Positions 4,200-23,767 of a DNA stretch of 64,000 nucleotides are shown here, piece after piece; positions within the stretch are counted from its first letter, which is position 1, and each line of letters begins with the position of its first letter. Below the pieces are notes generated by a model. That model was not told where the DNA came from. It searched no databases and saw only the letters and a program-made list of their open reading frames with translations. Made by a program: the position numbers and the translations under genes. Origin of the DNA: a virus; the IMG/VR virus record IMGVR_UViG_3300031718_000001, positions 1 to 64,000 of that record; one strand, given 5' to 3'.

Positions 4200-6323
4200 G
4201 TGGCCATCAGCCGCTGGGAGACCCCGGATACGGCACAGGCCGGGCCGCTGGACGTGATGGCCTGGTTCGACGGGCCGCCGGTTCCCGACCCGATCACTTT
4301 CATGATCGGCGAGGACTGGCTGGACAAGCCGAACCTGTACCCGCGCCAGGCCACGCTGATCAAGATCATCTTCCTGCGGGATGACCTGTTCACGGAGTAC
4401 GACCGCCGGGTCATCGCCGAGTGGCAGCAGCGGTTCACCGAGACCAACCCGGACGCCGTGGACAATAAGTTCGACGCGCGGACGAAAGGCCTCCAGCCGG
4501 ACCTGTTCGAGCGGATCGCCTATCTCAAGGCGCGCGGCTACCGGTGGTTTCCCGAGCTGATCATCGCGATCGGCCGCCGCGGGTCCAAGGGCTACCTGTC
4601 CGCGCTGTGCATGGCCTACGTGCTGTGGAACTACCTGTCCAAGGGCAACCCGCAGGAGTACTACGGCATCGACTCGAACAAGCCGCTGGCCTGCGCGGTG
4701 TTCGCCGGCAAGAAGCAGCAGGCGATCGAGAACCTGTGGGGCGACCTGTACAGCGTGCTGACCACGGCGCCGTGCTTCACCGGCTACATCAGCGAGGCCC
4801 AGGTCGAGTCGCTGACCATCTACGCGCCGTACGACTTCGTGCGGATGCACAAGCTGGCCCAGCGGGGCATCGCCTCCAGCAAGGACATGGCCACGTTCCG
4901 GGTGGTGCCCCGCGAGTCCACCCCCATCGCGCCCCGCGGGCCGGCCGGCTGCATCCTGGCCTTCGATGAGGCCGCGCACGTGAAAAACGCGGGCGTGACC
5001 CGCGAGTTCGGCATCGTGTACGGCGCGGCGAAGCCGTCCCTGGACCAGTTCGGCACCGACGGCTTCGTGGTGCTGCCCTCCAGCACCTGGGAGATGATCG
5101 GCAAGTTCTACGAGCTGTGGGAGCTGTCGCTCCAGCGCGAGCAGGACGGCGAGGACGGCGAGTACGTGCCGGCCTACCCGGACAAGTTCATGGTCCAGCT
5201 CGAATCCTGGGCGATCTACGAGGACTGGGAACTGGCCCCGCTGCTGCCGCTGTTCCCCGGGGGGTTCACGGGCGACCTGGACGAGTACGACCCGGAGGCG
5301 CTCCCCCGGCTCGGCAAGCTGAAGGGCGCCATCCAGGCCTATGACGAGGGCATGGCCCGCGAGGAGAAGGCTAACCCGGACACCTTTGCCGTAGAGAGGA
5401 GATCAGACTGGGCGACCGCGATGGACGCCTACCTGAACGCAGCCAGGATCGACGCGATGTTCGAGCCGTGGACTGACCGCCTGCCGGAGAACGGGCGCCC
5501 CGAGCTGGTCATGCAGACCCGCGGCCCGCTGTCGGTCACCTACACCGCGCACGGCGACCCCTCGTCGGTGAACTGCCGGTTCGGCCTGGCGGTCGCGCAC
5601 ACCGAGCACGACGACGCGGGCCTGGAGCATGCGGTCTTCGACCTGATCCACTTCTGGGATCCGGCCGACTTCGAGGATCACACCATCGACTATGACGAGG
5701 TGCGGGACTGGATCTTCGACAACGTGATCATCCGGTTCATGCCGGATGAGATGACCTTCGACCAGTTCAACTCGGTCGCCAGCGTCCAGGCCCTCCAGAA
5801 GAAGGTGCGCGGCGAGCGGCTGCCCAAGAACATCGTGGTCTACGAGCGCACCGCTACCGCCCCGCTGAACTGGATGACCTGGGAGATGTTCAAGGCGGCG
5901 CTGAACATGGGGTTCGTGCACAGCCCGGCGCATGCCGAGGCCAAGGACGAGCTGCGGTTCGTGCAGAAGCCCGAGGGCGTCCAGAAGGTCGTGCCGGCCT
6001 CGACCGGCCCGGTGCAGACCAAGGACATCGCCGACTGCATCGCGATCGTGACCGCCCGGCTGCTCGGCGAGCAGATGAAGGCCTACCTGGCCAAGGACCT
6101 GAAGAACCAGCGCCCGCACGTGTCGCAGTTCGGCGGCCAGGACGCGCTCGACCGGTTCAGCCCCGAGCACATGAACCCGTACGCCGCCTCGCTGGGCGTC
6201 CCGTCCGGTATCCGCGGCGGCCTGGCGCGGGGCATGAGGCCGGCCCCGGTGGGCAGGGGAGGCAGGACCGGCGGCGGCCGTCTGGGCATGAGCCCGCTCG
6301 GCGCTCGCCGTCACCGCTCGTGA
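4200..6323 (+). CDS. terL: terminase large subunit
   Basis: Walker A IGRRGSKG, Walker B LAFDEAAH, C-terminal RNase H-like acidic motifs HGDPS, TFDQFNS, KDIAD. Confidence 0.9.
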   Translation: MAISRWETPDTAQAGPLDVMAWFDGPPVPDPITFMIGEDWLDKPNLYPRQATLIKIIFLRDDLFTEYDRRVIAEWQQRFTETNPDAVDNKFDARTKGLQPDLFERIAYLKARGYRWFPELIIAIGRRGSKGYLSALCMAYVLWNYLSKGNPQEYYGIDSNKPLACAVFAGKKQQAIENLWGDLYSVLTTAPCFTGYISEAQVESLTIYAPYDFVRMHKLAQRGIASSKDMATFRVVPRESTPIAPRGPAGCILAFDEAAHVKNAGVTREFGIVYGAAKPSLDQFGTDGFVVLPSSTWEMIGKFYELWELSLQREQDGEDGEYVPAYPDKFMVQLESWAIYEDWELAPLLPLFPGGFTGDLDEYDPEALPRLGKLKGAIQAYDEGMAREEKANPDTFAVERRSDWATAMDAYLNAARIDAMFEPWTDRLPENGRPELVMQTRGPLSVTYTAHGDPSSVNCRFGLAVAHTEHDDAGLEHAVFDLIHFWDPADFEDHTIDYDEVRDWIFDNVIIRFMPDEMTFDQFNSVASVQALQKKVRGERLPKNIVVYERTATAPLNWMTWEMFKAALNMGFVHSPAHAEAKDELRFVQKPEGVQKVVPASTGPVQTKDIADCIAIVTARLLGEQMKAYLAKDLKNQRPHVSQFGGQDALDRFSPEHMNPYAASLGVPSGIRGGLARGMRPAPVGRGGRTGGGRLGMSPLGARRHRS

Positions 6324-6648: not shown

Positions 6649-6680
6649 AGGCGGGGGTGAGTGACCGCCCCCGCCTTTTT
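6649..6680 (+). terminator. intrinsic terminator
   Basis: AGGCGGGGG...CCCCCGCCT stem followed by a T run. Confidence 0.7.
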
Positions 6681-6708
6681 GCTGCCCCAGAAGGTGCAGG
6701 AGGCCTCC

Positions 6709-9700
6709 ATGCAGCGGCAGCAATCGCGCTCGTCAAATACAGGGATTATTGCTAACCTTGGTCCTATGGCGGACGACTTCCTCATGCATTTCGAGGCTGC
6801 CGGCGAGCCCGAGCAGCCATGGGCGTCTATCCGCACGGCCGGGCCGGATGAGTACGGCAAGTACGTCTACCCCGACTACCCGGCCAAGACCCCCGCCACC
6901 CTGGCGCGTTACTTCCGCAAGAACGAGCCGGACTACTACGCGGCCGTCCGCCAGCACGTCGAGGCGCACGGCGTGCAGGAGCCCGTGCTGCTCCGGTACC
7001 GGGACGGGGGCGGCCACCCGCTGAAGAAGCCGGTGGTGATGGGCGGTCATCACCGTGCTGCCGCGGCCTGGGAACTGGGCCAGTCGCTCCCGGTCGGCGA
7101 CTACGACAACCCCGAGCACTACGAGGCATCCAATACGGGCTTCGCCCAGCAGTGGTGGCGTGACCATTCCGCACTGAAGGAGCAGTACACCGACCCGCGC
7201 ACCCGGACAGCCGCAGTGCGGCCCGGCCGGGGCGAGAAGGCCTGCCTGTGCTGCAAGGGCAGCGGCTCGCACAATGACGGGTCCGAATGTGATCAGTGCG
7301 ACGAGTCCGGCTTGCTGCACAGCAACGAGGAGCAGCGCTACTGTCCTGGCCAGCCGCAGCCGAGGCGCCGCCGCTGGCGCGAGCCGGTCACCGGAAGCTT
7401 CGAGGATGCCGAGCCGGAGGCCAGGCAGGCACGGTTCGACCGGGCGCGGGAGTGGCTGGAGCGCAACACCGATGCTCACTCGGGAACCGTGGACATCCCT
7501 GCGCACTGGGGGCATCACGTAGATAACCAGACGATCCACCACATCCTGGATACGCACGGCTGGCCGCGTGACGAGTCCGACCGCGAGGACCACTGGAGCC
7601 ACATCGAGCCTGAGAACTTCCCGGTGCACCAGCCGATCCACCAGCATCAGGGCTTCGTCTGGCCTGGCGGGGTCGAGGACAAGATGATCGGGGCGATGGA
7701 GGATTCGCGTCCGTGGGACGACCAGCCAGCTAAGATCGTCCGGCACGAGGGGAACAGCTACCTGCTCGACGGCCATCACAAGCTCGCGGGTGCGCGGCTC
7801 CTCGGCCAGGACAGCATCGAGGCGCACGTCTTCGACACCAGCAAGCCGGAGACCTACCCGGAGCACTGCCGGGAGTGCCAGGACGAAGGCGTTGAGATGA
7901 CGAGGCGCCCGGAGACGGCGCACACCGCTGCCCGCCCCGGTTACCAGGGACAGCACCACCCGCTCTCCTGGAATGCGCCGATGCACGCAACTGAGGATGC
8001 GCCCGGGTTCTACGGCGATCCAGGGCGCCACACCTACGGCGAGGGCGCCGATGAGACGCTAGACCAGTTCCGGAAGGCCCGGGGGAACCCGGACCACCCG
8101 GTGCGCATCTACCGGACGATGCCGCTCCATGCCGGGGGCACGATCAACACGGGCGACTGGGTATCGCTCGGCCGCGAGGCCCCCCTCGACCTGGCCGAGC
8201 AGCGCAACTACCACGACCCGGACTCGCTGTTCACCGATCCGCTGCCCGACCACAGCCGTTATCACACGTATGAGGCCACGGTGCCAGCCCGCCACGTCCG
8301 CAACGGCGGCGACATGATGGAGTGGGGCTACTGGGGCGATCCTGTCCAGGGCGAGCACTCACCGGGCTGCTGCGACCAGCACACGGCCGGGCTTGATGTT
8401 TCTGCGAGCGCCGGGGACGAACCTTCAAGTGACTATAAGGATCTTCTCGGTCACTTCGAGGCAGCCGACTCTTCTGTTTATCACGGTGTGCATATTCCAC
8501 CAGGCGGCCCGGAAGACGATCCCGAGTGGGCATCGCCGATGCACGACGTGCGCAATGCGATGCCGCGGGCTTACGCCGGCTGGGATGCTGAGTCCGGCCG
8601 TCAGCTACAGGCATCCGAGGGAAAGCCCGATCACCCGGTCACGGTATACCGGGCGCTGCCCGCTGACCGCCGGGAATTCAACACCGGGGACTGGGTGACC
8701 ACCTCGGGCGCCTATGCCCGCCAGCACGGCGAGAGCAACCTGCGCCACGCCCCGTGGCACGTGGTGAGGGCTGATGTCCCGGCCAGGCACCTGTTCAACG
8801 AGGGCTACATGACCGAGTGGGGCTACCAGGGACCGCACATCGCGAATCCTGCGGTCCACTACGTCGGCCATGATCACGACCGCAGGGAGGCTTCATTGGA
8901 AGCCGAAGCGTCCGGAGACGACTACCGGCTGACGCACGGTGCGCCAGGTCCGCAGTCCGGTCACCTGCCGCTGCACCACTACACGGGCGAGGACCCCGAC
9001 AGCCATGTGCGCGTCTACCGCTCGGCTCCGGCCGGAACCGAGTCCATTAACACGGGCGACTGGGTATCGCTCAACCCGGCCTATGCCCACCGGCACGGCT
9101 ACGGCGAGGCGAGGGACGGCGGGAACTGGCCCGTCTACACGGCTGAGGTCCCGCAGCGGCACGTGCACTGGGACGAGAACGACCCGGACGAGCACGGCTA
9201 CAACGGCCCGGCCCTCCATCACCCGGACGTGCATGACGAGGAGACCGGCGCGCTGCACGACTGGGACGACTACCACGAGGCGCATCCGCACGGCCAGGAG
9301 GCGTGGCTGGGCGGCTCGGTGCACCTGCCCGTTGCCGAGCACGACTTTGCCCACGACGAGTTCGAGTGGGAGCCCGACCGGGCCGACACGGTGCTCAGCG
9401 CGGCCCGCGAGCAGGGCGCGCTCCATAACGCCCGCTGGCGCGATGACATCTACCCGGCCCGTGAGGATGCCGAAGGCCACGCGGCCCAGCACCTCGGCGC
9501 GGTACCCGAGGGCCACCGGCTGACCGCGTTCACCGTGCACCGCAACGACGCCGGCGCGATCGACGACATCGGGCTCCATCATTACGAGCCGTCAGATGAC
9601 CCGTATGTGCGCCGCCCTTACGCCTTCGCCGATCTGAGTGAGCACAATTACAGCCACCCGGCGGTCGAGGAGGCCGGGCGCGGCCATCAGGCAGCCTACG

Positions 9701-11517
9701 AGCCGCTGTCCAGGGAGTACTCGTCCGGCCGGATGCTCGTGTCGGACATCCGCCGCCCAGGTGGAGGGCTGCTGTCCGAGCGGCCGTACACCCAGCGCCA
9801 GATGGCTGCCGATATCAGGCGCAACGGGGTCGAGCAGCCGCTCGCCATAGAGCACACCACCGCCTACGGCGGCAACCCGACTGTGATCAACGGGCTGCAC
9901 AGGCTGGACGGCGCCCAGCGCGCCGGGATCGCCGATGTGCCGGTGGTAGTCAAGCACCTGCCCGGCCGCCTGCCTCCGATGCTCAGCCGCGAGCCTGCTA
10001 CCGAGCAGGAGTTCAATGATGCCTATGACACCGAGCGCAGCGGCAGGTGGGCAGGCGAGCCTGGGCTGACCGCCGAGGCCGAGGTTCTGGAGCCGTCAAA
10101 GCGAATCCGCAGGCGAGCGGTCAGGCAGCGCGATGGAGACGAGCGCAGTTTCGGCGAGTACACCATGCGGTACCGGACGACTGACGAAGGCGAGCGCAGG
10201 CCCCGTCACGTTATCGAGGTATTCCACCCAGATAGCGATCAGCCAGTCGGCAAGCTGTCCTGGCGCGGCAGCACCCGGAAGGTCGAGAGTATCGATGTCA
10301 GCGGCCCGCATCAGCGTAAGGGCCTGGCTACGGCCATGTGGGGCTGGTCGCAGGAGATGTCCCCGAAGGCCAGGCACTCGGACGATCAGACCGATCAGGG
10401 CAAGGCATGGGTGAAGTCGCTGAGCGCGCATGGCGCTTCGTCCAGCACGCCGGCTACTGCTGCGCTGGAGCCCGGGGCCGAAGATTCCGGGATCTCCGTA
10501 GAGCACCATGAGACGTTTTCTGGCGGAGCGACTTACCCGAATCTGCACACGTTTACCGCGCGCCATCCGGACGGGACTGAGGCACAGCTCAGCTACATGC
10601 TGTCTAAGCGCAACGCCAGGGGCGTAGTTGATCGCGCCTACATCCCCAAGGACCACGCGCAGTCCCTGGGAGTTCCTCTCGTCCAGGCCGCCAGGCGGCT
10701 GCACCCGGGTGTCTTCGTGAGGGGGATGCCGGGCCTTGACGAGGACTGGGGTCAGCACCTGCCGTCCGTTACCTCGCTGCACCGGAACCTGACGATAAAG
10801 CTGGAGCCGGCCGACCGGGCTTACGTTCATGACGAGTCGGTGCCCAGGGCGCACCGGGCTAGGTTCCTGATGGACCTGATGGCCCGCAGCGGGCCGTCGA
10901 TGCACTGGGCCTCCCAGCGGGGGCAGGTCGCGGCCGAGGAGAGCTTCGGGGACCATGAATTCCGTTCGCCCGAGCACACGCAGATCTCGCTCAGCGCAAG
11001 CCCGCCGTCGGCCGAGCACGTGGAGACCGATCCGGAGCGGATCTCCCGGAACGGCGGCTACGCCTACCAGGCGCCTGACTGGGAAGTTCCGCTGAAAGAA
11101 GGTGCTCCGGTGAACGTCGGATCGATCCGCTGGCGTACCGGTACGGCCGGGTGGACGCAGCACCGGTTCAGGAGCGGCCACCAGTTCACTGCCGGAGTGC
11201 ATCCGGCCGAGCTAGCATCCGCCCCGGCGCGGACGGCGCAGCTAGCCGTTCGGCCGGCAGAGCAGATCAGCGTCATCTCTTCCTGGATTCCGGAGAACAA
11301 CGCCCAGGTCCAGGAGATGCTGGATGACTTCCCGTTGCTGTTCATCGCCCTGGCCGACGGGCTGACCTCGCTGGCCGCGCGGATAGACGGGCCGGTGGAC
11401 GAGCGGATCCCGGGCGCGCTCACCGCGATGGCCGCCGCGTGCCAGTCCGCCGCCGAAGACGCCCGGGACACAGCAGCACGCGCACACGAAACCGCAGGAG
11501 CATGGCATGCCTCTTGA
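6709..11517 (+). CDS. giant polyvalent protein 1 (3x ParB-like, zinc finger, 3x repeated ART-like domain, GNAT, second ART-like family, C-terminal helical domain)
   Basis: GGHHR, DGHHK and NGLHR ParB motifs; three YR..P...NTGDWV[ST]...E[WH]GY repeats; QRKGLAT GNAT motif A; SD GGAGG before ATG 6709, alternative start 6766. Confidence 0.8.
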   Translation: MQRQQSRSSNTGIIANLGPMADDFLMHFEAAGEPEQPWASIRTAGPDEYGKYVYPDYPAKTPATLARYFRKNEPDYYAAVRQHVEAHGVQEPVLLRYRDGGGHPLKKPVVMGGHHRAAAAWELGQSLPVGDYDNPEHYEASNTGFAQQWWRDHSALKEQYTDPRTRTAAVRPGRGEKACLCCKGSGSHNDGSECDQCDESGLLHSNEEQRYCPGQPQPRRRRWREPVTGSFEDAEPEARQARFDRAREWLERNTDAHSGTVDIPAHWGHHVDNQTIHHILDTHGWPRDESDREDHWSHIEPENFPVHQPIHQHQGFVWPGGVEDKMIGAMEDSRPWDDQPAKIVRHEGNSYLLDGHHKLAGARLLGQDSIEAHVFDTSKPETYPEHCRECQDEGVEMTRRPETAHTAARPGYQGQHHPLSWNAPMHATEDAPGFYGDPGRHTYGEGADETLDQFRKARGNPDHPVRIYRTMPLHAGGTINTGDWVSLGREAPLDLAEQRNYHDPDSLFTDPLPDHSRYHTYEATVPARHVRNGGDMMEWGYWGDPVQGEHSPGCCDQHTAGLDVSASAGDEPSSDYKDLLGHFEAADSSVYHGVHIPPGGPEDDPEWASPMHDVRNAMPRAYAGWDAESGRQLQASEGKPDHPVTVYRALPADRREFNTGDWVTTSGAYARQHGESNLRHAPWHVVRADVPARHLFNEGYMTEWGYQGPHIANPAVHYVGHDHDRREASLEAEASGDDYRLTHGAPGPQSGHLPLHHYTGEDPDSHVRVYRSAPAGTESINTGDWVSLNPAYAHRHGYGEARDGGNWPVYTAEVPQRHVHWDENDPDEHGYNGPALHHPDVHDEETGALHDWDDYHEAHPHGQEAWLGGSVHLPVAEHDFAHDEFEWEPDRADTVLSAAREQGALHNARWRDDIYPAREDAEGHAAQHLGAVPEGHRLTAFTVHRNDAGAIDDIGLHHYEPSDDPYVRRPYAFADLSEHNYSHPAVEEAGRGHQAAYEPLSREYSSGRMLVSDIRRPGGGLLSERPYTQRQMAADIRRNGVEQPLAIEHTTAYGGNPTVINGLHRLDGAQRAGIADVPVVVKHLPGRLPPMLSREPATEQEFNDAYDTERSGRWAGEPGLTAEAEVLEPSKRIRRRAVRQRDGDERSFGEYTMRYRTTDEGERRPRHVIEVFHPDSDQPVGKLSWRGSTRKVESIDVSGPHQRKGLATAMWGWSQEMSPKARHSDDQTDQGKAWVKSLSAHGASSSTPATAALEPGAEDSGISVEHHETFSGGATYPNLHTFTARHPDGTEAQLSYMLSKRNARGVVDRAYIPKDHAQSLGVPLVQAARRLHPGVFVRGMPGLDEDWGQHLPSVTSLHRNLTIKLEPADRAYVHDESVPRAHRARFLMDLMARSGPSMHWASQRGQVAAEESFGDHEFRSPEHTQISLSASPPSAEHVETDPERISRNGGYAYQAPDWEVPLKEGAPVNVGSIRWRTGTAGWTQHRFRSGHQFTAGVHPAELASAPARTAQLAVRPAEQISVISSWIPENNAQVQEMLDDFPLLFIALADGLTSLAARIDGPVDERIPGALTAMAAACQSAAEDARDTAARAHETAGAWHAS
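6730..6766 (+). promoter_or_regulatory. sigma70-like promoter with element, giving a leaderless start at ATG 6766
   Basis: TCGTCA-17-TAACCT-7nt-ATG. Confidence 0.6.
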
Positions 11518-14500
11518 CGAGCCCGGGTTCCCGAACCCGCATACAGGTCAGGATGAGTGGTTCCACGGCACCAGGGCTTACCCCGAGGACCTTTCGCAGC
11601 ACGGGTTCATGGATCCGATGGACATAGACCGCGGCGGCTACGAGGACCCGGACGCCGAGACGACGGGCCACTGGAATGCCCTGCTCGGCACGCATTTCAC
11701 CGCCGATCACAAGGTGGCCCACGAGTTCGCCACCGGAGAGCATGACTCGGGCGAGAACGATCCCGGCGGCGAGCCTTGGCGCCCTGCCTACCAGGGCGTC
11801 GTGCATGCCCGGCTGCACCTGCGGAACCCGAAGATCTATGACTCCGAGCACGACATGGATCACGAGGCCTACGAGCACGAGTTCGCGGCCGGGAACCACC
11901 CGAGCAATCACGTCCCGCTGCTCGACAGCGACGACGAAGACGACCGGTACGAAGCCGAGGACATGTGGCCGCACGCTGACCGGCTGCACCAGGAGTACGG
12001 CAACCGGGAGATCCCGCGCAGCGCCTACACCCCGTACGGGACGGACGGCGCCGGCCACCCAGAGCGCACCCTGTGGCTGAGCACTCACCCCGACCGGCAT
12101 GACATTGCCGAGCGGTTCCGGCAGCGGCTCCAGGCCCAGGGTCATGACGGCGTGGTCTACGGAAACGAATACGAGAAGAGCCAGCACGGCCGCAAGGCGG
12201 TCTCGGCAATCGCCTTCCACCCGGATCAGGTCGATATCCGGCAGCACCACCATGCCGAACACACGTGCATGGACCCGGAGGAGGCCGCAGCGCACCGCGG
12301 CCGGCTTCCCGGCCTCGGTCAGGAGGCGCTGCCGGGCCTCGATGACTACAGCATCTCGCGCCAGGCGCTAGTGCAGCACTTCGCCGCAGACGAGGAGTTC
12401 GACCACCCCGAGTTCGGCAACTTCGACGAGGAGTACGGCCTCTATCACCATCCGGACCACGGCTGGCACTGCCATGCCTGCGGTGACTTCCACGACGACG
12501 CGGAGACGGCCACCAGGCACCAGGACTCCTATACCGACTGGGGCCGGGTGCACCCGGGTCTGCCTGAGCACATGCACCGCGGGCTCGCGCTCCAGCTCCC
12601 GGCGGAGCTGCATGACGCGGTGCACGACGAGAGCGCCCCGGTTGAGCGGCGCGGCCGGATGCTCCTGGAACACCTCGGCGAGGACGGTCACGGCACCCAC
12701 TGGACGCCAGACGAGGAGCAGGCCGCTCATTATGCCGGGGTCAGCGCTCACCAGAACGCGGGCACCTGGCACGGCGGCAGCGGCCAGACCCACGTCATCC
12801 TGCACGCCCGCAGGCCCGCCATCGACGACATCGAGACCGACCCTGACACGCTGGCTGATCAGGACGTGATCAGCTTCGGCGACCATGATGACGCTGAGAT
12901 CCCGATCCGCCAGGGCGCCCCCGTGCACCTGACCGGGATCTCCTGGAAGCGCGCGGACGCGCCTGATACAGCATGGCAGCAGCACGACCTTCCGCAGACG
13001 CATCTGGGAGCACTGGAAATGACCGCAGGTGACGCAGATGAGGGCCTGACCTGGGACGAGATCGGCGAGCGGCACCCGGCGCTTTACGGTGACCCCGAGA
13101 TCCACGGCGAGGCGGCCGAGGGCGCTGACGGTGAGGGGATCGGCGATGTAGCCGGCCACCTGGCCTACGACCGGCCTGGGCACAACTACGCCGAGGGCAC
13201 CGGGGAAGAGCACCCGTCCTACACCGGCCTGCGGTTCTACCCGCGCACCATAGACCCCGCCCGGATCGACTACGCCCGCCACGGCAGCGATGACCAGCGT
13301 GTCCGCAACGCCCGCGCCGGCTACTCCGGCGCGCACCCGGACCACGTGCCCCCGCTGATCCTCGTGCACCGCCACGGCGTGTTCCAGGTCGCTGACGGGC
13401 ACCACCGCGGCGAGGGCGCCAGCCTGGCGTGGCGGCCGGTCGCCGCCTATGTCGCCTACTCACCGCACGAGCACGAGCCGTTCAGCGATGGCGAGCGCGG
13501 CCCGTTCCACGGCGCCGAGACCGAAGAGCAGCACGCCCTGGAGCGGGACACCGAGGGCGGCCGGATGAGCTACCCCGGTTTCCCGCACACAGCCGAGACC
13601 CCGCACCCGGTAACGGCGGCCCTGGTCAGCCACTTCGCCGAGCTGGAGCCGCCGAAGTACCACCCCGAGGCGCGGTGCCCGATGTGCGGGGGCCGCAACT
13701 ACGAGCGCGAGGAGCGGCCGGGATACATCCCGGAGGGGTCCAGGGCGCCGGCCTACTGCCGGAACTGCGGGGAGGCCTTCGACGCGAGCAGGTCCGGCCG
13801 CGAGATCGCCGAGGAGCGCGAGCGTGAGCACCGCGAGTGGGAGGAGGCCACCAGGAACCGCCGGTACAACGGCGAGGCCCTGTTCCACGGCACCAGGTCC
13901 GAGCTGCACCCCGGAGACCTGCTGACCCCTGACGAGGCCGAGCGCCACCGGGCGCACCCGGACGAGGACAGCCGGGGGTACATGCACGCCACGACCGTCG
14001 GCGAGGAGGCCTACGGCTGGGGCGAGCGCGCAAGCGGCGCCGAAACGCATGAGCGGATGACCGAGCTGGGCCGGGGCAGGCCCATGCCCGCCGGTCATTC
14101 GCAGGGCGAGGCCTACCGGCCGCGGGTCTACCAGGTTGAGCCGACCGGCCCGGTCGAGTACGACCCGAACGGCGAAGGCGAGGCATTCCGCAGCGCGCAT
14201 CCGCTGCGCGTCGTCCAGGAGGTACACCCTCTGGTCTGCTATCACGAGGATCATGAGGGCGAGTACCACTGGCCCGACCACGAGCACTACGAGTTCCTCA
14301 AGCAGCAGGAAGACGACGAGCACGAGGATGACGACGACGACTGGGGTCACGAAGCGGCTGCCATAGCGAGCGCGGACGAGCACGACGGCGATGGCTACAC
14401 CGTCTGCGACCAGGGCCACGAGCACTGGGGCCTGAACGGCGCCGCAGGCCTGCTGGTGCGCCACCACGACGACGACGGGGAGACCAGGTACCTGCTCCAG

Positions 14501-15598
14501 CACCGGTCGCCGTACGTCCAGCACGGCCGCACCTGGAGCACGCCAGGTGGCGCAATGGGCAGCGGCGAGACGCCCGAGCATGCCGCTCTGCGCGAGGCCC
14601 GCGAGGAGATGGGTGAGCTGCCCGGTGACCTGGAGCACCACCACACGGTCACCGATGACCACGGCGGATGGTCCTACCACACCGTGGTGATGGACTCGCC
14701 GACCAGGTTCCGCCCCAGCGGAAGCGGCGAGACCGACTGGGAGAGCGAGGGCAGCGGCTGGTTCACCCCTGGCGAGATCCAGGGCCTGCCTCTGCATCCC
14801 GGGTTCCGGTCGAGCTGGGACAAGGTGCAGCACTCAGGATCGCTCCGGGTCGTGGCCCTGGACGACGTGCCCGCCTTCACCCACCGCTACCTCTCGGCCC
14901 AGCCAGACGGCGGGTACGCCGAGCGCGAGGAGCTGGTCCAGGGGCCGTTCTACCACGGCAGCCGGTCGAAGCGGCTGGGCGAGGGCGCCGAGCTGACTCC
15001 CGGCCGCAAGACCAACGGCTGGGGCGACGAGGGATCGAAGTCGCAATGGGTGCACTTCACGACTGACCTGGGCGGGGCAGCCGAGTACGCGCGCCAGGCA
15101 GGCGGACACGTCTATGAGGTCGAGCCGCACGGTGACGTGCAGATGGGCTACAGCGGCAGCGATTGGAAGTCGAAGGGGGTGCTGCGCGTCCGCCGCGTGG
15201 TCCCGCCGGAGGAGATCGCCAGGCACCAGGCCCGGACAGGCCAGCTCATCGTCGCCGCGAACGTCTCCGATCATGTCCTGACCCGGGGTGCCCCGATCCC
15301 TGCCGCGGCTGACGTGCATGCGGCTATCGGCGCCTGGACGCCGCAGAACGCCCGCGAGGTGCATGAGTGCCTGGATGAGTTCCCGCTGCTGTTCCGGGCA
15401 CTGCACGAGGGCCTGGCCGAACTGGCGCACGAACTCGAAGGCACACCGGTCAGCGTCCATCTCATCGCCATCGTGCGCAGGATGGCAGCGTGCTGCCAGG
15501 GCGCGGCCGAGGACGCCACGGAGGTTGCCGGACGCCCGCTGGATGGCGCAGAAGGTATGTGGGAAGGATCGCGAGCGTCAGTCGGCCCAAAAGCCTGA
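11507..15598 (+). CDS. giant polyvalent protein 2 (ART-PolyVal-like, ART-like, ParB-like, zinc ribbon, 2x Arr-like ART, NUDIX, C-terminal helical domain)
   Basis: WFHGT..GTHFT..LRNP..GHDGV; ADGHHR; LFHGT..VYQVEPTG and FYHGS..VYEVEP Arr-like motifs; NUDIX box GGAMGSGETPEHAALREAREE; SD AGGAG. Confidence 0.8.
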   Translation: MPLDEPGFPNPHTGQDEWFHGTRAYPEDLSQHGFMDPMDIDRGGYEDPDAETTGHWNALLGTHFTADHKVAHEFATGEHDSGENDPGGEPWRPAYQGVVHARLHLRNPKIYDSEHDMDHEAYEHEFAAGNHPSNHVPLLDSDDEDDRYEAEDMWPHADRLHQEYGNREIPRSAYTPYGTDGAGHPERTLWLSTHPDRHDIAERFRQRLQAQGHDGVVYGNEYEKSQHGRKAVSAIAFHPDQVDIRQHHHAEHTCMDPEEAAAHRGRLPGLGQEALPGLDDYSISRQALVQHFAADEEFDHPEFGNFDEEYGLYHHPDHGWHCHACGDFHDDAETATRHQDSYTDWGRVHPGLPEHMHRGLALQLPAELHDAVHDESAPVERRGRMLLEHLGEDGHGTHWTPDEEQAAHYAGVSAHQNAGTWHGGSGQTHVILHARRPAIDDIETDPDTLADQDVISFGDHDDAEIPIRQGAPVHLTGISWKRADAPDTAWQQHDLPQTHLGALEMTAGDADEGLTWDEIGERHPALYGDPEIHGEAAEGADGEGIGDVAGHLAYDRPGHNYAEGTGEEHPSYTGLRFYPRTIDPARIDYARHGSDDQRVRNARAGYSGAHPDHVPPLILVHRHGVFQVADGHHRGEGASLAWRPVAAYVAYSPHEHEPFSDGERGPFHGAETEEQHALERDTEGGRMSYPGFPHTAETPHPVTAALVSHFAELEPPKYHPEARCPMCGGRNYEREERPGYIPEGSRAPAYCRNCGEAFDASRSGREIAEEREREHREWEEATRNRRYNGEALFHGTRSELHPGDLLTPDEAERHRAHPDEDSRGYMHATTVGEEAYGWGERASGAETHERMTELGRGRPMPAGHSQGEAYRPRVYQVEPTGPVEYDPNGEGEAFRSAHPLRVVQEVHPLVCYHEDHEGEYHWPDHEHYEFLKQQEDDEHEDDDDDWGHEAAAIASADEHDGDGYTVCDQGHEHWGLNGAAGLLVRHHDDDGETRYLLQHRSPYVQHGRTWSTPGGAMGSGETPEHAALREAREEMGELPGDLEHHHTVTDDHGGWSYHTVVMDSPTRFRPSGSGETDWESEGSGWFTPGEIQGLPLHPGFRSSWDKVQHSGSLRVVALDDVPAFTHRYLSAQPDGGYAEREELVQGPFYHGSRSKRLGEGAELTPGRKTNGWGDEGSKSQWVHFTTDLGGAAEYARQAGGHVYEVEPHGDVQMGYSGSDWKSKGVLRVRRVVPPEEIARHQARTGQLIVAANVSDHVLTRGAPIPAAADVHAAIGAWTPQNAREVHECLDEFPLLFRALHEGLAELAHELEGTPVSVHLIAIVRRMAACCQGAAEDATEVAGRPLDGAEGMWEGSRASVGPKA
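15586..15592 (+). other. candidate -1 frameshift slippery heptamer C CCA AAA
   Basis: X XXY YYZ in the zero frame, one codon before the stop; the -1 frame stays open for 934 codons. Confidence 0.7.
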
Positions 15599-18396
15599 GC
15601 CGGACGGCAGCCGGTGACTGGGATCCGTACGAGGAGACCTGGGACGAGCACCGGGCCGGCCAGGAACCGGATGAGCCGCTGCCTTCCGAGACGGACGAGT
15701 ACTGGAGCCCGCCGCACCTCTACCACGGCACAGCCGAGGACCTGAAGCCAGGCGATTCAGTAGAGCCCGGCCATGGCCCGAACTTCGGCGGCGGCCAGTC
15801 CATGGACCCGCGGCACACTCATGCCTATGCGACCCCTCATATCCGTTCTGCCTGGGAGTATGCAGAGAACGCAGCCGCCAGGCGAGGCGGTCGTCCCCGG
15901 GTCTACGAGGTAGGCCGCACGGAAGATATGCTGCCCGACCCGGAGAGCGGCCACGCCGTCGGCGGCCCCCAGATGATCCCCCACCCGGGCTGGCGCAGCA
16001 AGACCGGCTTCCCCGTGCTCCGGGAACTGGAACCGCACGAGCTGGGCGATTACACGGCCGCTGCGCACTGGGCACCGTCGTCGGGCATTTTCGCGCCGAC
16101 TACCGGGCTCGACCGCCGGCTGTTCGACGGCCGCGAGCATCTGCGCCCGGTCGCCCGCGGGGCCATCATGGAGAAGCTCGACCGCTGCCTCCGCACCGAC
16201 ACCGGCCTGACCGGATCGGACTGGCAGGACTGGCTGAAGGTGTACCTGGCCGGCGGGTCAGCGAGCGAGTGGGCCGGCGACCGGCCGAACGAGGCGGCCC
16301 AGGACCTGGACGTGCTGCTCGGCGTGGACTATGCCGGGGCACGCAGGAACACCCCCGGGTTCCGGGAGATGACCGACGCCGAGATCGACGCCGCGCTCAA
16401 CACGGGCCTGCGGAGGTGCTTCAACACCGACGGCTGGAGCCCGGACGGCTTCGAGGGCACCTGGAACCTGACCGGCTACGTCAACCCGCAGGCCTGGGAC
16501 ATCCGCTCGATCAAGCCCTATGCCGCCTGGGATCTCTCGGACTCACGCTGGGCTGTCCGGCCGCCGCACCTGCCAGATCATGCCCTGGCCGACTTCAACC
16601 CGGCCGTGCTGGCCGAGGCCAGGGCCATCGCCTCCCAGGCCCGCGCCATCCTGCGGCTGCCCGAGGCGCTCCGGATCCGCGAGGCCCGCGCGCTCTGGGA
16701 CCGCATCCACGACTCCCGGCGCTCAGCGTTCTCGGAGGAGGGCGAGGGCTGGACTGACCCGGGCAACGTCATCGAGAAGTGGCTGGCCTACGCCCCCGGT
16801 AACCTCCTGGGCCAGATCCGGGAGCTGGCGCTAGCGAAGACGGCGGGGCTAGTCCAGCCGCGGCCGGAGGATTTCGCTCACGGTGTCTATAACAATGACA
16901 CCAGCGATTTCCGGCTGCACGGCGACGATTACATCTTGCATCACAGCCATCCGAAGGTGATCACGGCCTACGTCCGCGGGCCGGAGCTGGTGGCTCCAGA
17001 CCAGCCGAACTACACTCGCGGCCACCAGCGCCCTTACGAGGTCGGGTACTTGAGCTGGCTCGGCGGTGATACCCCGAAGATCTACAAGACCTTTGTGAAG
17101 GAGGATCACCGCCGTAAGGGCGTGGCCTCCGCGATGCTCGGCTTCGCCCGGGAGATCGAGCCCAGCCTCCAGCACTCGCACGCCCTGACTGAGGACGGTC
17201 ACGCCTGGGCCGAGAAAACGGCTGCCCACGTACCCGGAGATGAGCCGGTCGTCCGGACGCACATGGATCTCGGCTGGAGCCCGGACGAGTGGGCTGATGC
17301 CCGGCGTGACCCGTGGCACGCTTCAGCTAAGCTCGCTCAGGCCGAAGTCCGGCACTCCCACCCGAAGCTCCGCATGCCGCTTCCGCGCGGCGAGGAGGGC
17401 GACGCCATGGTGGGTCACCTGCTGCGCTACGCCGGGTACCAGGGGCCTACCGAGGGCGCGTTCGCCGCCAGGCACCCGGACCCGTCGAAGATGACCTCGA
17501 ACCCGTCCTGGCTGAACGGCAAGCCGGGCGTGGCCCTCCACCCGGACAGGTGGGACTACGGCACGGCCGCGCACGAAGCCGCCCACCATGTCGTGATGTA
17601 CAACCACGCAGTCGCGCGGAATGAGCCGCAGACCGACGAGCAGGTGCACGGCCCGGAGTGGGCTCGCGCCTACGGCCAGGCGCTCAACAAGATCTCGAAG
17701 CACGCCGGGGACGACTTCGTGTACCACCACGGCCGGTTCCGCTCGATGATCGACGAGGGACTCCAGTATGTCCGGCCGGGCGATCTCGATGACGCCGAGA
17801 AGCGCCTGCCGCCCCGCCGCTGGGTCGATGACGAGGTGTACCCCGCTCCAACGCGGCTGGCTTCAGCGTTGGAACCGCGGGCTGGCGCTGCAACCCGCGT
17901 TGGAGTCACCGGCTACGACGGCCTGACGAAACGCTCGGGCATGATCTACCTCGACCTGCCCGAGGGCGCCGTCCGCCGCCTGCCGGGCGGCGTGGACGAC
18001 CACCACATCACGGTTGTCTACCTCGGGAAGAACGTGACCGACGAGGCCTTCGAGGAGGCGTGCCGCCGGGCACGGCTGGCCGCGGGAAAGACCGGCCCGC
18101 TGCACGGATTCCTGAACGGGACCGAGACCTTCGAGCCCAGCGATTCCAGCGGGGAGAAGGTGCCGGTGTTCGTGCCGGCCTACATCCCGGGCATCGGAGC
18201 GCTGCGCCGGGAACTGGAGGACCTGTCGGGAAGTGAGCACCGGCAGTACCGCCCGCACGTTACGCTGGCCTATCTTGAGCCAGAGGATGATCTTCCCGCC
18301 CCGCATCCGAAGGTGGATGTGAGCTTCGGGCGGCTGCACGTAAAGCGCGGGGACCAGGTGGTAAGTTTCCCGCTGGGCCATTCGCAGTGGGGGTGA
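15592..18396 (+). CDS. giant polyvalent protein 3 (Arr-like ART, Pol-beta-like nucleotidyltransferase, GNAT, zincin peptidase, 2H phosphoesterase); probably made as a -1 frameshift extension of protein 2
   Basis: LYHGT..PRVYEV; GGS..DLDV; HRRKGVAS; HEAAH..HGPEW; HIT and HVT motifs; no convincing start codon of its own. Confidence 0.75.
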   Translation, partial: SLSRTAAGDWDPYEETWDEHRAGQEPDEPLPSETDEYWSPPHLYHGTAEDLKPGDSVEPGHGPNFGGGQSMDPRHTHAYATPHIRSAWEYAENAAARRGGRPRVYEVGRTEDMLPDPESGHAVGGPQMIPHPGWRSKTGFPVLRELEPHELGDYTAAAHWAPSSGIFAPTTGLDRRLFDGREHLRPVARGAIMEKLDRCLRTDTGLTGSDWQDWLKVYLAGGSASEWAGDRPNEAAQDLDVLLGVDYAGARRNTPGFREMTDAEIDAALNTGLRRCFNTDGWSPDGFEGTWNLTGYVNPQAWDIRSIKPYAAWDLSDSRWAVRPPHLPDHALADFNPAVLAEARAIASQARAILRLPEALRIREARALWDRIHDSRRSAFSEEGEGWTDPGNVIEKWLAYAPGNLLGQIRELALAKTAGLVQPRPEDFAHGVYNNDTSDFRLHGDDYILHHSHPKVITAYVRGPELVAPDQPNYTRGHQRPYEVGYLSWLGGDTPKIYKTFVKEDHRRKGVASAMLGFAREIEPSLQHSHALTEDGHAWAEKTAAHVPGDEPVVRTHMDLGWSPDEWADARRDPWHASAKLAQAEVRHSHPKLRMPLPRGEEGDAMVGHLLRYAGYQGPTEGAFAARHPDPSKMTSNPSWLNGKPGVALHPDRWDYGTAAHEAAHHVVMYNHAVARNEPQTDEQVHGPEWARAYGQALNKISKHAGDDFVYHHGRFRSMIDEGLQYVRPGDLDDAEKRLPPRRWVDDEVYPAPTRLASALEPRAGAATRVGVTGYDGLTKRSGMIYLDLPEGAVRRLPGGVDDHHITVVYLGKNVTDEAFEEACRRARLAAGKTGPLHGFLNGTETFEPSDSSGEKVPVFVPAYIPGIGALRRELEDLSGSEHRQYRPHVTLAYLEPEDDLPAPHPKVDVSFGRLHVKRGDQVVSFPLGHSQWG

Positions 18397-20212: not shown

Positions 20213-21193
20213 ATGGCCCCGCCGCCGGGCGCGCTTCCTGCGGGGAGCGCGCCCGTGCCATGTGAGGACGAGGGAAGGGCGGGCGGGACGGTTAACGGCC
20301 TGATAACGAGGTCTGGCGCCTGGTCCGGTGAGCGCGCCCGGGTCAGTGCCTATGTCGTCCACTGCAAGCACGCGCTCTATGACGTGTATGGCGGGCGTCC
20401 CGGGCCGCTAGGCAACCCGTTCGTCATCGGCACCGATGGCAGCCGGGCTGAGGTGATCACCAGGTTCGAGGAGCACCTGCTGAGCACGCCTGCGCTGCTC
20501 GCAATGCTGCCTGAACTGCGCGGGAAGATAATCGGCTGCTGGTGCGCTCCACGGCCATGCCATTGCGAGGTACTGGCCTGGTACGCGAACTGCGGGGAAG
20601 GAGTATCACAGATGGATAAAGAAGCTCAGCTAGCTGCGCTGTATGCCGAGTACGCGACGAGCCCGGTCCTCCAGCAGGTTGCCGACGGCAGGCGGCTGGT
20701 GCGCGGTTACGGCCCGCTCGAAGCCCCGCTGGTCGTCATCGGCGAGGCCCCGGGCGAGCAGGAGGACATCCAGGGCCGTCCGTTCGTCGGGCCGTCCGGA
20801 CGGCTCCTCCAGGAACTGTTCGCCAGGGCGGAGCTGCCCTGGGATCTGTGTTATGTAACGAACGTACTGCCATGGCGACCGCCCGGCAACCGCACGCCGT
20901 ACCAGTTCGAGATCATCGCCAGCTACCCGCGGGTCGAGCGCGAGATCGACCTGATCCAGCCGGTGCTCGTGGTGGCGGCCGGGTCCGTCGCCTGGCATGC
21001 GGTCAGCCAGGCCGAGCTGGGTGCGTTCACCACGGCTCGCGGCCACTGGATGCAGGTGCCCTGGAAGGACTGGATGGTGCTGCCGGTGTTCCACCCGAGC
21101 GCCATCCTGCGGGCTCACGGCACCGAGCGAGCCCAGATGGAGGAGCAGACTATCCGCGCCCTGCGCAGTGCCCTGGCCGGCGCCGATGCCTGA
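20213..21193 (+). CDS. udg: DUF4326-like domain in frame with a family-4-type uracil-DNA glycosylase (internal start at 20612)
   Basis: GRPGPLGNPF..GCWCAP.PCH (DUF4326-like); IGEAPG..E...GRPFVGPSG, TNV, RPPGNRTP and FHPS (UDG family 4). Confidence 0.8.
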   Translation: MAPPPGALPAGSAPVPCEDEGRAGGTVNGLITRSGAWSGERARVSAYVVHCKHALYDVYGGRPGPLGNPFVIGTDGSRAEVITRFEEHLLSTPALLAMLPELRGKIIGCWCAPRPCHCEVLAWYANCGEGVSQMDKEAQLAALYAEYATSPVLQQVADGRRLVRGYGPLEAPLVVIGEAPGEQEDIQGRPFVGPSGRLLQELFARAELPWDLCYVTNVLPWRPPGNRTPYQFEIIASYPRVEREIDLIQPVLVVAAGSVAWHAVSQAELGAFTTARGHWMQVPWKDWMVLPVFHPSAILRAHGTERAQMEEQTIRALRSALAGADA

Positions 21194-21740: not shown

Positions 21741-22426
21741 TGCTGGCGGCACGCCAGCTCCTGGACTCCGGTGCCCGCGTGGTGCTGACCCGGCGTCAGC
21801 TCAGGGACCTGATCGGCCTGGCAGAGAAGCAGGGCCTGGAGCCCGTCAGGAAGCCCGACACGGGCCGTCAGCAGTGGTACGGCCGACTCCATGGCTGGAG
21901 CGCTGAACGTGTCCGTGCGGGGCTCTCAGCGGCCGAGGTGATAGGCCTGTGGCTCGACTTCCTCGACGCGGGCCGGATACCCCCGCTGCGCGTCCGTGAC
22001 CTGACCGCGATCGTCGATGTGATCAGCCGCCGTGACCCGTCCGTGATCGTTACCACCGCGTTACCCGGCTTCTCGCGTGACCTGGCGCCCGGCCGCAGAA
22101 GGGACAGGAACGCCCTGAGATGCGGAGGAACCGATGACAGATCGCAGCGCCCTGGTAGCGGCCGTCCAGACCGCCGGCAGCGGGGCAGCGCTCGCCCAGG
22201 CCGTCGCGACGCTGGATGCCCACGACCGCCACCGCGCCGCAGCGCTCAATGCCCAGCGCGACCTCGACCTGGGCGTGCAGATCGTCGCCGAGCGGCTCAC
22301 CCCCGTCCCGCTGCACGAGCATCACACCGCGGCCACCGACTGGCTGGGCGACTACCAGGAACCCGCGGACGGCACCTACCGCACCGCGATGATCGCGGAG
22401 GCATCCGTCTGGTACCGCGGCCTTGA
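21566..22426 (+). CDS. hypothetical protein with N-terminal C..C..H..C zinc site (3' overlap suspicious)
   Basis: TTG with SD GGAGG; coding-like to about 22050. Confidence 0.45.
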   Translation: MSTTTVWEAGLTCDAEGCGGEFTLGEEIIYWYGRKLHQKCASADAASRREASGEDGDVMLAARQLLDSGARVVLTRRQLRDLIGLAEKQGLEPVRKPDTGRQQWYGRLHGWSAERVRAGLSAAEVIGLWLDFLDAGRIPPLRVRDLTAIVDVISRRDPSVIVTTALPGFSRDLAPGRRRDRNALRCGGTDDRSQRPGSGRPDRRQRGSARPGRRDAGCPRPPPRRSAQCPARPRPGRADRRRAAHPRPAARASHRGHRLAGRLPGTRGRHLPHRDDRGGIRLVPRP

Positions 22427-23747
22427 CCCGGCCGTCCGCGGGGATGCCCAGGAGCTGGCCGAGCAGGCCCGCGGCCGGGCGCGCACCGCTGCGTCCGCCT
22501 TCGGCGCCCAGGCCGTCGCAGCCCAGCATGAGTTCCTCCAGGTGGTCAGTTACCTCCGCATGGCCGAAGGTGCCAGCGGGCTGCCGCAGATCGACCAGAC
22601 CATCGACCCGAACAACCAGCCGAGCGCCACGCCGTACCCGACCGAGGTGTTCCCGACCTTCGGCGAGGAACAGGACCCGTATAACGGCGTCGAGACCAGC
22701 AACCACCAGTCGGGTGCGGCCAGCGCCGGCGCTCCGCTGATCCAGCAGGTCGAGCAGCAGAACGCCTCGGGTTCCGGCTTCGGGACCGGCCCGGAGAAGC
22801 CTGACGAGCACAGCCTCGGCTTCGACACGAGCAACTCCTACGCCGAAGTGCCGCTCGGGCCGCCCGGCCAGATCCCCACGGCTCCCGCCGCGACGGACCA
22901 GATGGCCTCCAGCCACCCGAACCCGGTGGCGGGCACCATCCAGGATGCCGGGAGCGACCGGCGCCCCACCGTGGCGCACATCGAGGGCTACAGCCTGCCG
23001 GACCCGTTCGGCTACCGGTGGCCGATGACCGGGGAGGTGCACCACCCGTTCCACGAGCGGTGCGCCAGCGCGCACTGGCCGGATGAGTCCTGCGGCGACC
23101 GCACGCACACAGCGTCCATGGCGGTCGGGTACATGATGAACCTGGATCAGGCCCGGCGCCAGGCTGCCTGCGAGGCCGTCGGCGTGCGCGAGGGAGTCCG
23201 GATCGTCGCTTCAACCGGCTCGCTGGCCGAGCTGGGCGGCTATCACAACCGGTTCGCCGCCGCCTGGAACGGCTCGGGCCGGACAGCCGACGACACTGCG
23301 GTGCTGCACGGGTTCATGGCCGTGGTGCGCCCGGTACTGGCCGAGGTAGGCCAGCGGGAAGCCAAGTCGTGTGACGAGTGCGCCTCGGGCAACTGCCAGA
23401 ACTGCAAGGGGCACGGCTGCACGTGCAGCAAGTGCACCACCCAGTTCGGCCCGCGGCCGGGGAACTCCAAGACCGCGGCAGGCGGCCTCGCGGCCGGAGG
23501 CGTTACCGAGCACGAGCGCGAGACCGCCACGCATCACCTGCCCGGCACTGACGGCAAGTTCCCGGTCAACGGCCCGGCCGATGTGGAGAACGCCAAGCAC
23601 GACATCGGCCGGACTAATGAGCCGCACGCAAAGGTGGTCCGGTACATCAACGAGATGGCGAAGGAGTACCACGTCGCGCCAGTCGGCGGCAGCCAGAAGG
23701 CCGCAGCCCTGGGGAGGGAGCCAAATTTTACGGTCACGGCGCTCTGA
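22134..23747 (+). CDS. putative head/internal virion protein, short form
   Basis: SD GGAGG; Pro/Gln/Ala-rich, [KRH]TA linkers, Cys cluster, DUF6582-like KFPV..NA segment. Confidence 0.65.
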   Translation: MTDRSALVAAVQTAGSGAALAQAVATLDAHDRHRAAALNAQRDLDLGVQIVAERLTPVPLHEHHTAATDWLGDYQEPADGTYRTAMIAEASVWYRGLDPAVRGDAQELAEQARGRARTAASAFGAQAVAAQHEFLQVVSYLRMAEGASGLPQIDQTIDPNNQPSATPYPTEVFPTFGEEQDPYNGVETSNHQSGAASAGAPLIQQVEQQNASGSGFGTGPEKPDEHSLGFDTSNSYAEVPLGPPGQIPTAPAATDQMASSHPNPVAGTIQDAGSDRRPTVAHIEGYSLPDPFGYRWPMTGEVHHPFHERCASAHWPDESCGDRTHTASMAVGYMMNLDQARRQAACEAVGVREGVRIVASTGSLAELGGYHNRFAAAWNGSGRTADDTAVLHGFMAVVRPVLAEVGQREAKSCDECASGNCQNCKGHGCTCSKCTTQFGPRPGNSKTAAGGLAAGGVTEHERETATHHLPGTDGKFPVNGPADVENAKHDIGRTNEPHAKVVRYINEMAKEYHVAPVGGSQKAAALGREPNFTVTAL

Positions 23748-23767
23748 CCAGGACAGCCCAGAGCGCC
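23723..23767 (+). other. candidate -1 frameshift signal: A AAT TTT plus downstream stem-loop/pseudoknot
   Basis: heptamer 23723-23729; GGCGCTCTG (23738-46) pairs with CAGAGCGCC (23759-67); GGTCA (23732-36) pairs with TGACC (23745-49); GGAGG at 23713-17. Confidence 0.75.

Follow-up and report, generated by a model that had tools for sequence, protein, structure and literature searches.

Two giant genes downstream of the terminase gene of a large, uncultured soil phage are very probably joined by a conserved slippery signal, at which some ribosomes would change frame by -1 and make a 2,296-residue fusion of the two products. The stretch of DNA analyzed (the window) comprises the opening 64 kb of a soil contig of 165,085 bases with 68% G+C, and because the ends of the contig overlap by 127 bases we consider it a circularly complete phage genome. 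It contains 38 tRNA genes clustered at genome positions 87300-96000, with all three Pro and both Lys anticodons represented. The large terminase gene (4200..6323, + strand) places the locus among actinobacterial myovirus-like phages; its nearest relatives (31-34% identity) are the terminases of Gordonia phage RedWattleHog, Rhodococcus phages Finch and E3, and the cluster C mycobacteriophages. Because of these relationships, and of portal, protease and major capsid homologues at genome positions 61539, 75347 and 79762, the phage appears to have an actinobacterial host and a myovirus-like virion. The terminase gene of the relative L001 (2504-5419) is longer (971 aa, compared with 707 aa here) and has a weak LAGLIDADG match, as is also seen at L004:1-554; the additional segment is probably an intein.

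The giant genes lie directly after the terminase gene, both here and in L001, L002 and L296, and the portal, protease and capsid genes are located 43-61 kb further on. There are three such ORFs, all on the + strand: ORF1 (6661..11517; 1618 aa), a giant polyvalent protein with the same C-terminal helical domain as ORF2; ORF2 (11507..15598; 1363 aa, ~152 kDa; product A), with Arr-like ADP-ribosyltransferase and NUDIX domains; and ORF3, which extends to 18396. The combined domain set of the three includes ParB-like, Arr-like, NUDIX, GNAT, 2H, zincin-like and nucleotidyltransferase-like (NTase) domains, kinds that have been described for polyvalent proteins (PMC5512222). ORF2 has its own start with a GGAG 6-7 nt upstream, and the ORF1-ORF2 junction, an ordinary overlapping start with a +1 offset and no heptamer, serves as an internal control. 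In many relatives (L005, L008, L171 and L172, with upstream genes of 2926-3801 aa) a single larger gene appears to take the place of ORF1 and ORF2, and close relatives differ in the order and number of their domains, modules being exchanged immediately after the shift site. A gene for a DUF4326 and uracil-DNA glycosylase protein (window 20213-21193) is kept downstream of ORF3 in relatives. We also note that short linkers resembling [RKH]-[TE]-A-[AGS] recur at domain boundaries of the giant proteins (6661-18396) and in the ORFs at 22134-26502, and could be protease sites.

ORF2 ends GGC CCA AAA GCC TGA, in which the heptamer C CCA AAA (15586..15592, +) is in X XXY YYZ phase with ORF2 and encodes Pro-Lys in both frames; re-reading of the DNA agrees with the original prediction of a slippery site here. 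The TGA stop codon of ORF2 (15596..15598, +) follows one codon after the heptamer, and TGA or TAG is found at this same one-codon distance in all heptamer-containing loci. The -1 frame, previously read as S-L-S-R-T-A-A-G-D-W, is indeed open to 18396 and would add a cassette of 934 codons (15592..18396, +) to A, such that the transframe product (AB) would be 2296 aa long (~255 kDa) with the junction peptide V-G-P-K / S-L-S-R-T-A-A. The sequence CCCAAA[ACT] occurs once in the 165-kb genome, counting both strands, and when the whole genome is scanned for heptamers that lie in phase close to a stop codon and lead into a coding -1 frame, only this site and one at 23723 are found. The final position of the heptamer is never G, which sets the site apart from the AAG heptamers that shift most readily in E. 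coli. Among the tRNA genes of the phage are those for tRNA-Pro(UGG) and for both tRNA-Lys species; because AAG has its own tRNA, one would predict heptamers with A, C or T as the last base.

Loci in related soil phages were identified from homologues of ORF2 and ORF3, with a gene whose product ends in the helical domain preceding the ORF3 homologue, and 24 distinct split junctions were read. The offset is -1 in 24 of 24, and at 21 junctions the arrangement XXX AAA Z, one codon, stop and open -1 frame is present, so that the proposed heptamer and frame offset are both conserved. The heptamers are CCCAAAA (12 junctions), CCCAAAT (6), CCCAAAC (1) and GGGAAAA (2), and these loci span about 13 lineages with NTase identities down to about 55%. 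Both AAA (4.7% of Lys codons) and CCA (4.1% of Pro codons) are rare in these genes, and Pro-Lys is written CCC AAA in 19 of 19 cases at the junction compared with 2 of 94 elsewhere. The frame-0 residue at YYZ alternates between Lys and Asn, the last residue of ORF2 is free, and in L002 and L027, which represent one lineage only, a C-to-G change at X converts Pro to Gly in both frames at once; these are changes that a slippery site would allow and that a protein motif would not predict. In a profile search that reached further, 36 proteins (representatives at 50% identity) had C-termini of the form [PG][KN]x, x being free, and some of them are the same proteins as at these loci. Upstream of the heptamer, silent changes between related pairs number 9 of 30 in frame 0 and 2 of 26 in the -1 frame, a small sample; downstream, the -1 peptide [SRL]-[LV]-[STA]-[RPG] is kept with Ser switching between AGC and TCG, and the rare codons CTA and GTA appear wherever the stop codon is TAG. 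The reading frame under selection thus appears to switch at the heptamer.

The three junctions lacking a heptamer belong to one clade (L010, L011 and L091; 98/87) and have RTGA (ATGA or GTGA) stop-start overlaps with the same -1 offset, and in this clade ORF3 can therefore be made by initiation alone. Scanning viral contigs for the DNA pattern yielded matches that were mostly due to chance, those with the helical domain all being at loci already known; single-protein scans of the same kind of contigs gave no matches.

The 3' side of the site provides further evidence, although the window itself is the weakest case. A weak 5-bp stem formed by GCCGG (15599-603) and CCGGT (15611-15) lies 6 nt after the heptamer (15599..15615, +), as had been proposed; its position is confirmed, but its strength is no better than chance here, at the 27th and 59th percentiles of local controls, and a much stronger hairpin occupies this position in relatives. 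At the 21 junctions, however, the 45 bases beginning 5 nt after the heptamer fold into a more stable structure than nearby in-phase positions do (mean percentile 0.09, Wilcoxon p 3e-5), and so they do when each lineage is represented by one locus and the stem is made to open 5-9 nt downstream (mean 0.16, 13 lineages, p 4e-4). At several loci stems of 8-12 bp begin at the base after the stop codon despite differing sequences, and the three heptamer-less loci have no folding signal (percentiles 0.43, 0.5 and 1.0). The family spacer of 6-7 nt fits the 5-9 nt usual between slippery site and structure (PMC5009743). The 3' stem arms are not alignable among relatives, in which the downstream modules differ; L173 has 18 more bases at the stem position, and these carry the 3' arm of a 6-bp stem that is absent from the window. 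Because its own stem is the weakest and is degenerate, this genome may shift less efficiently than its relatives. A pseudoknot in the window was considered but is not supported, only a 3-bp second stem being visible by eye.

Two relatives encode the products as one continuous chain. In L296, a 163-kb genome, P0164 (2425 aa) is the only giant gene after the terminase gene, and its helical domain continues in frame through P-P-K-V-L-S-R to the NTase, the chain ending in 2H. The DNA reads CCC CCA AAA GTC CTT AGC, with the heptamer in phase and one additional base after it, and its -1 frame meets a stop codon two codons on; a shift in L296 would thus give a short form ending at the helical domain, an inverted arrangement resembling that of dnaX. 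The second in-frame fusion, P0103, is seen as a protein sequence and leads from the helical domain through P-P-K-A-S-R-P to Arr-like and zincin domains. L296 shows that a fused chain is at least tolerated and that the heptamer is retained with no ORF3 N-terminus to require it, with each natural fusion represented by a single contig and the L296 stem at chance level. On the tree, either the split or the fused state may be the older one.

ORF3 had been thought to have no plausible start of its own, and this part of the original prediction does not hold. Nine codons ahead of the heptamer, at 15559, lies a GTG in frame with ORF3 that is preceded at 4 nt by AGAAG (AGAAG-N4-GTG, 15550..15561, +, -1 frame), a weak and closely spaced ribosome binding site from which a product B of 945 aa, with the N-terminus M-G-R-I-A-S-V-S-R-P-K, could begin, and the public gene call for ORF3 (P0018, 945 aa) starts there. 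RGAAG-N4-RTG is found in the -1 frame at 24 of 24 split junctions, 3-11 codons before the heptamer position. Read in frame 0 this element encodes E-[GA]-x-W, yet Glu is written GAA without exception (background 9.9%), a purine invariably precedes TG (background 36%), and TG is retained when Trp becomes Cys; in L010 the Trp codon has been turned into the stop of the GTGA overlap. Typical starts in this genome have GGAG at 6-7 nt, and the site at 15559 is closer and a poor Shine-Dalgarno match, with a duplex energy of -5.5 kcal/mol compared with a median of -8.2 kcal/mol for the starts of the genome. The start-like element matches the heptamer in conservation, and ORF3 therefore need not depend on the shift; we think it somewhat probable that GTG 15559 is used and gives free B. 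A promoter was also considered and is not supported, its spacer varying by codons.

With both elements apparently under selection, the simplest reading is that both work, and we favor with good confidence a programmed -1 frameshift that appends a cassette to the end of a giant polyvalent gene, most likely beside a weak overlapping start. The earlier idea that the shift sets the ratio of the cassette to the upstream enzymes is thus retained only in part: the comparison among relatives supports a programmed shift, but not a sole dependence of ORF3 on it, and because the start-like element is conserved the shift probably sets the fused share of the cassette and not its total. Ribosomes translating ORF2 would reach C CCA AAA with tRNA-Pro and tRNA-Lys (tRNA-Asn in some relatives) in place and would be slowed there by the hairpin 6-7 nt further on. 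Most would terminate one codon later and release A, ending in the helical hairpin; some would re-pair on CCC AAA and continue through the Arr, NTase, GNAT, zincin and 2H domains to yield AB, and free B would come from weak or coupled initiation at GTG 15559. The level of slippage in this genome is probably low.

A variant of this reading denies B altogether, such that all of the ORF3 product is fused and the GAAG-RTG block is either a by-product of a conserved E-x-x-W tail or a 5' stimulator of the shift. The poor Shine-Dalgarno geometry agrees with this, as does conservation of the Trp in standalone copies of the helical domain, but synonymous positions of the block are fixed far beyond what the protein would need, and both the standalone copies and the fused L296 lack the motif and have C before TGG. 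Neither is a stimulator convincing: the GAAG lies 13-31 nt from the heptamer (31 nt in the window), mostly outside the 9-14 nt known for stimulatory Shine-Dalgarno sequences, and is not supported in this role. We regard this variant as rather unlikely.

Less likely still is that ORF3 is made only by initiation, starting at GTG 15559 with a 40-nt overlap with ORF2, independently or by coupling. P-K-S-L would then be an N-terminal protein motif, the hairpin would mark termination, and the heptamer would have arisen incidentally, from dual coding or from a start region that is rich in A and unstructured. The invariance of the start-like element across all 24 junctions, including the fixed GAA, the purine and the TG kept through Trp-to-Cys, speaks for this, together with the GTGA overlap of L010, the absence of the motif from the fused L296, and the choice of the GTG by gene callers. 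It requires, however, that P-[KN] in frame 0 and P-K in the -1 frame be selected together and turn to Gly jointly; P-K is missing from the ORF3 N-terminus in the clade without the heptamer, L296 retains CCA AAA inside a single frame, the ribosome binding site is weak and closer than usual, and the spacer is not conserved in the -1 frame. We consider an origin of ORF3 by initiation alone improbable.

An A run beside a GC-rich stem could also reflect transcriptional slippage or a minus-strand terminator. Polymerase slippage sites are longer than the 3-4 A found here, intrinsic terminators differ from the 6-nt gap between the stem and the T run (on the minus strand here), and neither alternative needs XXX or a codon phase; both are very improbable. 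The least likely explanation, that a continuous gene in this phage has been broken by an assembly error or a recent inactivating indel, could draw on the continuous frame of two relatives, but it is refuted by ungapped contigs of two other studies that cross the junction through 15603, by the identity of L001 and L004 over the junction, and by the same offset in 24 distinct junctions, and its probability is negligible. The comparison was made with assembled contigs. The probable source contig shows no difference from the window over 14600-16600; an 85.9-kb contig from a second study aligns ungapped to 14600-15603, differing by 30 substitutions, and one from a third study covers 15181-15603, likewise ungapped. 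The latter two part from the window immediately after S-L-S-R, at which point the following module has been exchanged, in frame.

The domain assignments previously made for the cassette are consistent with the searches, with the Arr-like and 2H domains passing Pfam cut-offs and the GNAT, zincin and Pol-beta NTase assignments being weaker. The Arr-like ADP-ribosyltransferase domain (15718..16026, +; PF12120, E 7e-6) is swapped or absent in close relatives. It is followed by the conserved core of ORF3, a Pol-beta-superfamily nucleotidyltransferase-like domain (16069..16836, +; model pLDDT 91), for which PDB and Pfam searches with an alignment gave no match, and for which the top Foldseek matches belong nearly all to the Pol-beta superfamily, but with a best E of only 3e-3. 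The GNAT-like domain (17041..17229, +; PF13508, E 0.006, below the cut-off) has a paralogue in ORF1. The zincin-like domain (17305..17763, +) carries HEAAH as its HExxH motif and has Atlas structure matches to SprT-like and M48 metallopeptidases (TM 0.43-0.59), and the 2H phosphoesterase domain (17992..18378, +) matches PF13563 (E 2e-7) and PHROG 2659. A MuF domain was not detected. Cultured phages have only a distant NTase homologue (29-30%), and a search of them for the helical domain found none, so none of them is usable as a model. In more distant phages (L042 and L143 near 7908-7926; L128 near 5817) the NTase gene follows a short upstream gene and starts by an ATGA or TAATG overlap, and the L042/L143 product begins M-N-H-L-R-Q-A-W.

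The C-terminus of ORF2 is a helical domain of ~110 aa (15251..15595, +) with no Pfam family, modeled as a two-helix hairpin (pLDDT 78). Pfam and structure searches assign it to no known family, the model matching generic hairpins only; EsxA rows appear only at E above 1, and the turn motif is x-P-V/L as opposed to the central W-x-G of WXG100 proteins of type VII secretion. The domain ends ORF1 and ORF2 but never ORF3, is C-terminal in all split loci and internal in the two natural fusions, and also forms a standalone family of ~113 aa. A third copy in this genome (146745-147089; L300:5745-6089) has its own ATG preceded by GGAGG and is also in frame with a 654-codon Arg/Gly-rich ORF; its neighbors look like those of actinomycete conjugative elements and include, by eye, an ArdC-like protein with an HEAAH motif, and it has a homologue in Flindersiella endophytica. 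The domain may possibly be a sorting or assembly handle. As ORF3 has no helical domain of its own, our working guess, a tentative one that we hold at less than even confidence, is that the shift ties a set share of the ORF3 enzymes to the handle of ORF1 and ORF2 for loading into the virion; packaging of such enzymes in the head has been proposed (PMC9503650). More speculative, and in our view doubtful, is a three-product switch (A, B and AB) in which a helical hairpin derived from actinomycete conjugative elements is the virion-loading handle and the shift divides the cassette into free and virion-delivered pools, tuned by hairpin strength, by one-base inversion as in L296 and by loss of the site, with the second -1 site at 23723 as a further instance.

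The mechanism, judged from the phased heptamer, the open -1 ORF and the conservation at nucleotide level, would be the known tandem-slippage -1 shift. As in the G/GT tail chaperone genes of lambda and actinophages (PMC5009743, PMC10885494), X XXY YYZ lies near the end of the first ORF with a stop codon close behind and would give a minor long fusion. The partners here are instead enzyme arrays of 1,300-3,800 aa beside the terminase gene, the second ORF has a conserved start-like element, and the G/GT pairs, unlike these giant ORFs, are small chaperone ORFs that sit between the genes for tail tube and tape measure. Members of the IS3 family (IS3, IS911, IS150 and ISSau2) share two ORFs overlapping at -1 with a heptamer and a 3' structure, and make OrfA, OrfB and OrfAB (PMC5771124, PMC5009743); the site here is C CCA AA[ACT] and not AnG, the GAAG is mostly too far away to double as a stimulator, and the giant ORFs contain no HTH OrfA, DDE OrfB or transposase domains, so that the locus would operate in a similar way without belonging to the IS elements. 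Long and short forms from one gene are also made by dnaX (tau/gamma) and by the carboxysome gene for CsoS2A/B (PMC5009743), and in dnaX a change of one base decides which of the two forms requires the shift, as is the case between the window and L296, but these phages are as a rule split, and what is added is a cassette of five enzyme domains. Optional C-terminal extensions of virion proteins (T7/T3 gp10, Lactobacillus A2, Listeria A118 and PSA; PMC5009743) are likewise in frame in some phages and reached by frameshift in others; those add an Ig-like domain, in contrast to the enzymes found here, which are carried by something other than a capsid or tail protein.

The giant proteins resemble polyvalent proteins in having many conflict domains per chain and genes next to the terminase gene, the domains reported for these including ART, GNAT, Pol-beta NTase, metallopeptidase, ParB-like and Nudix (PMC5512222; PMC9503650). 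They combine multiple unrelated conflict domains that are shuffled among relatives, as is characteristic of the class, but the Arr-like ART and the helical hairpin are not among the polyvalent-specific entries of Pfam. Neither PMC5512222 nor PMC9503650 uses the word frameshift, and within an incomplete coverage of the literature we found no report of it in polyvalent proteins. Conserved phage frameshifts are known almost only from tail chaperones and Ig-like capsid or tail extensions; the site described here, if it acts as proposed, would control the attachment of a host-modifying enzyme cassette to a giant polyprotein in a widespread group of uncultured large soil phages, all of whose genes are annotated without a frameshift. 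The natural series, in which hairpins are strong or weak, the heptamer takes four forms, one fusion is inverted and one clade lacks the site, would form a test set for actinobacterial ribosomes on non-AAG heptamers, and it flags the uncharacterized helical domain as a possible sorting signal.

The second candidate -1 site, A AAT TTT (window 23723-23729), would lead from ORF 22134-23747 into ORF 23783-25495. The heptamer is the same in L001, is G GAT TTT in L002 and G GAT TTC in L009, and is partially conserved. Each of these sites lies one codon before the stop, has a -1 frame open for 520-650 codons, and is followed by a stem of -18 to -26 kcal/mol (raw energies). The ORFs beginning at 22134, 23783 and 25492 were considered as protease and capsid genes, an assignment that was rejected because those homologues sit at the genome positions given above (75347 and 79762). 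In L014 the two ORFs at the 23723 site are separate with a Shine-Dalgarno start, and in L008 and L296 they form one gene.
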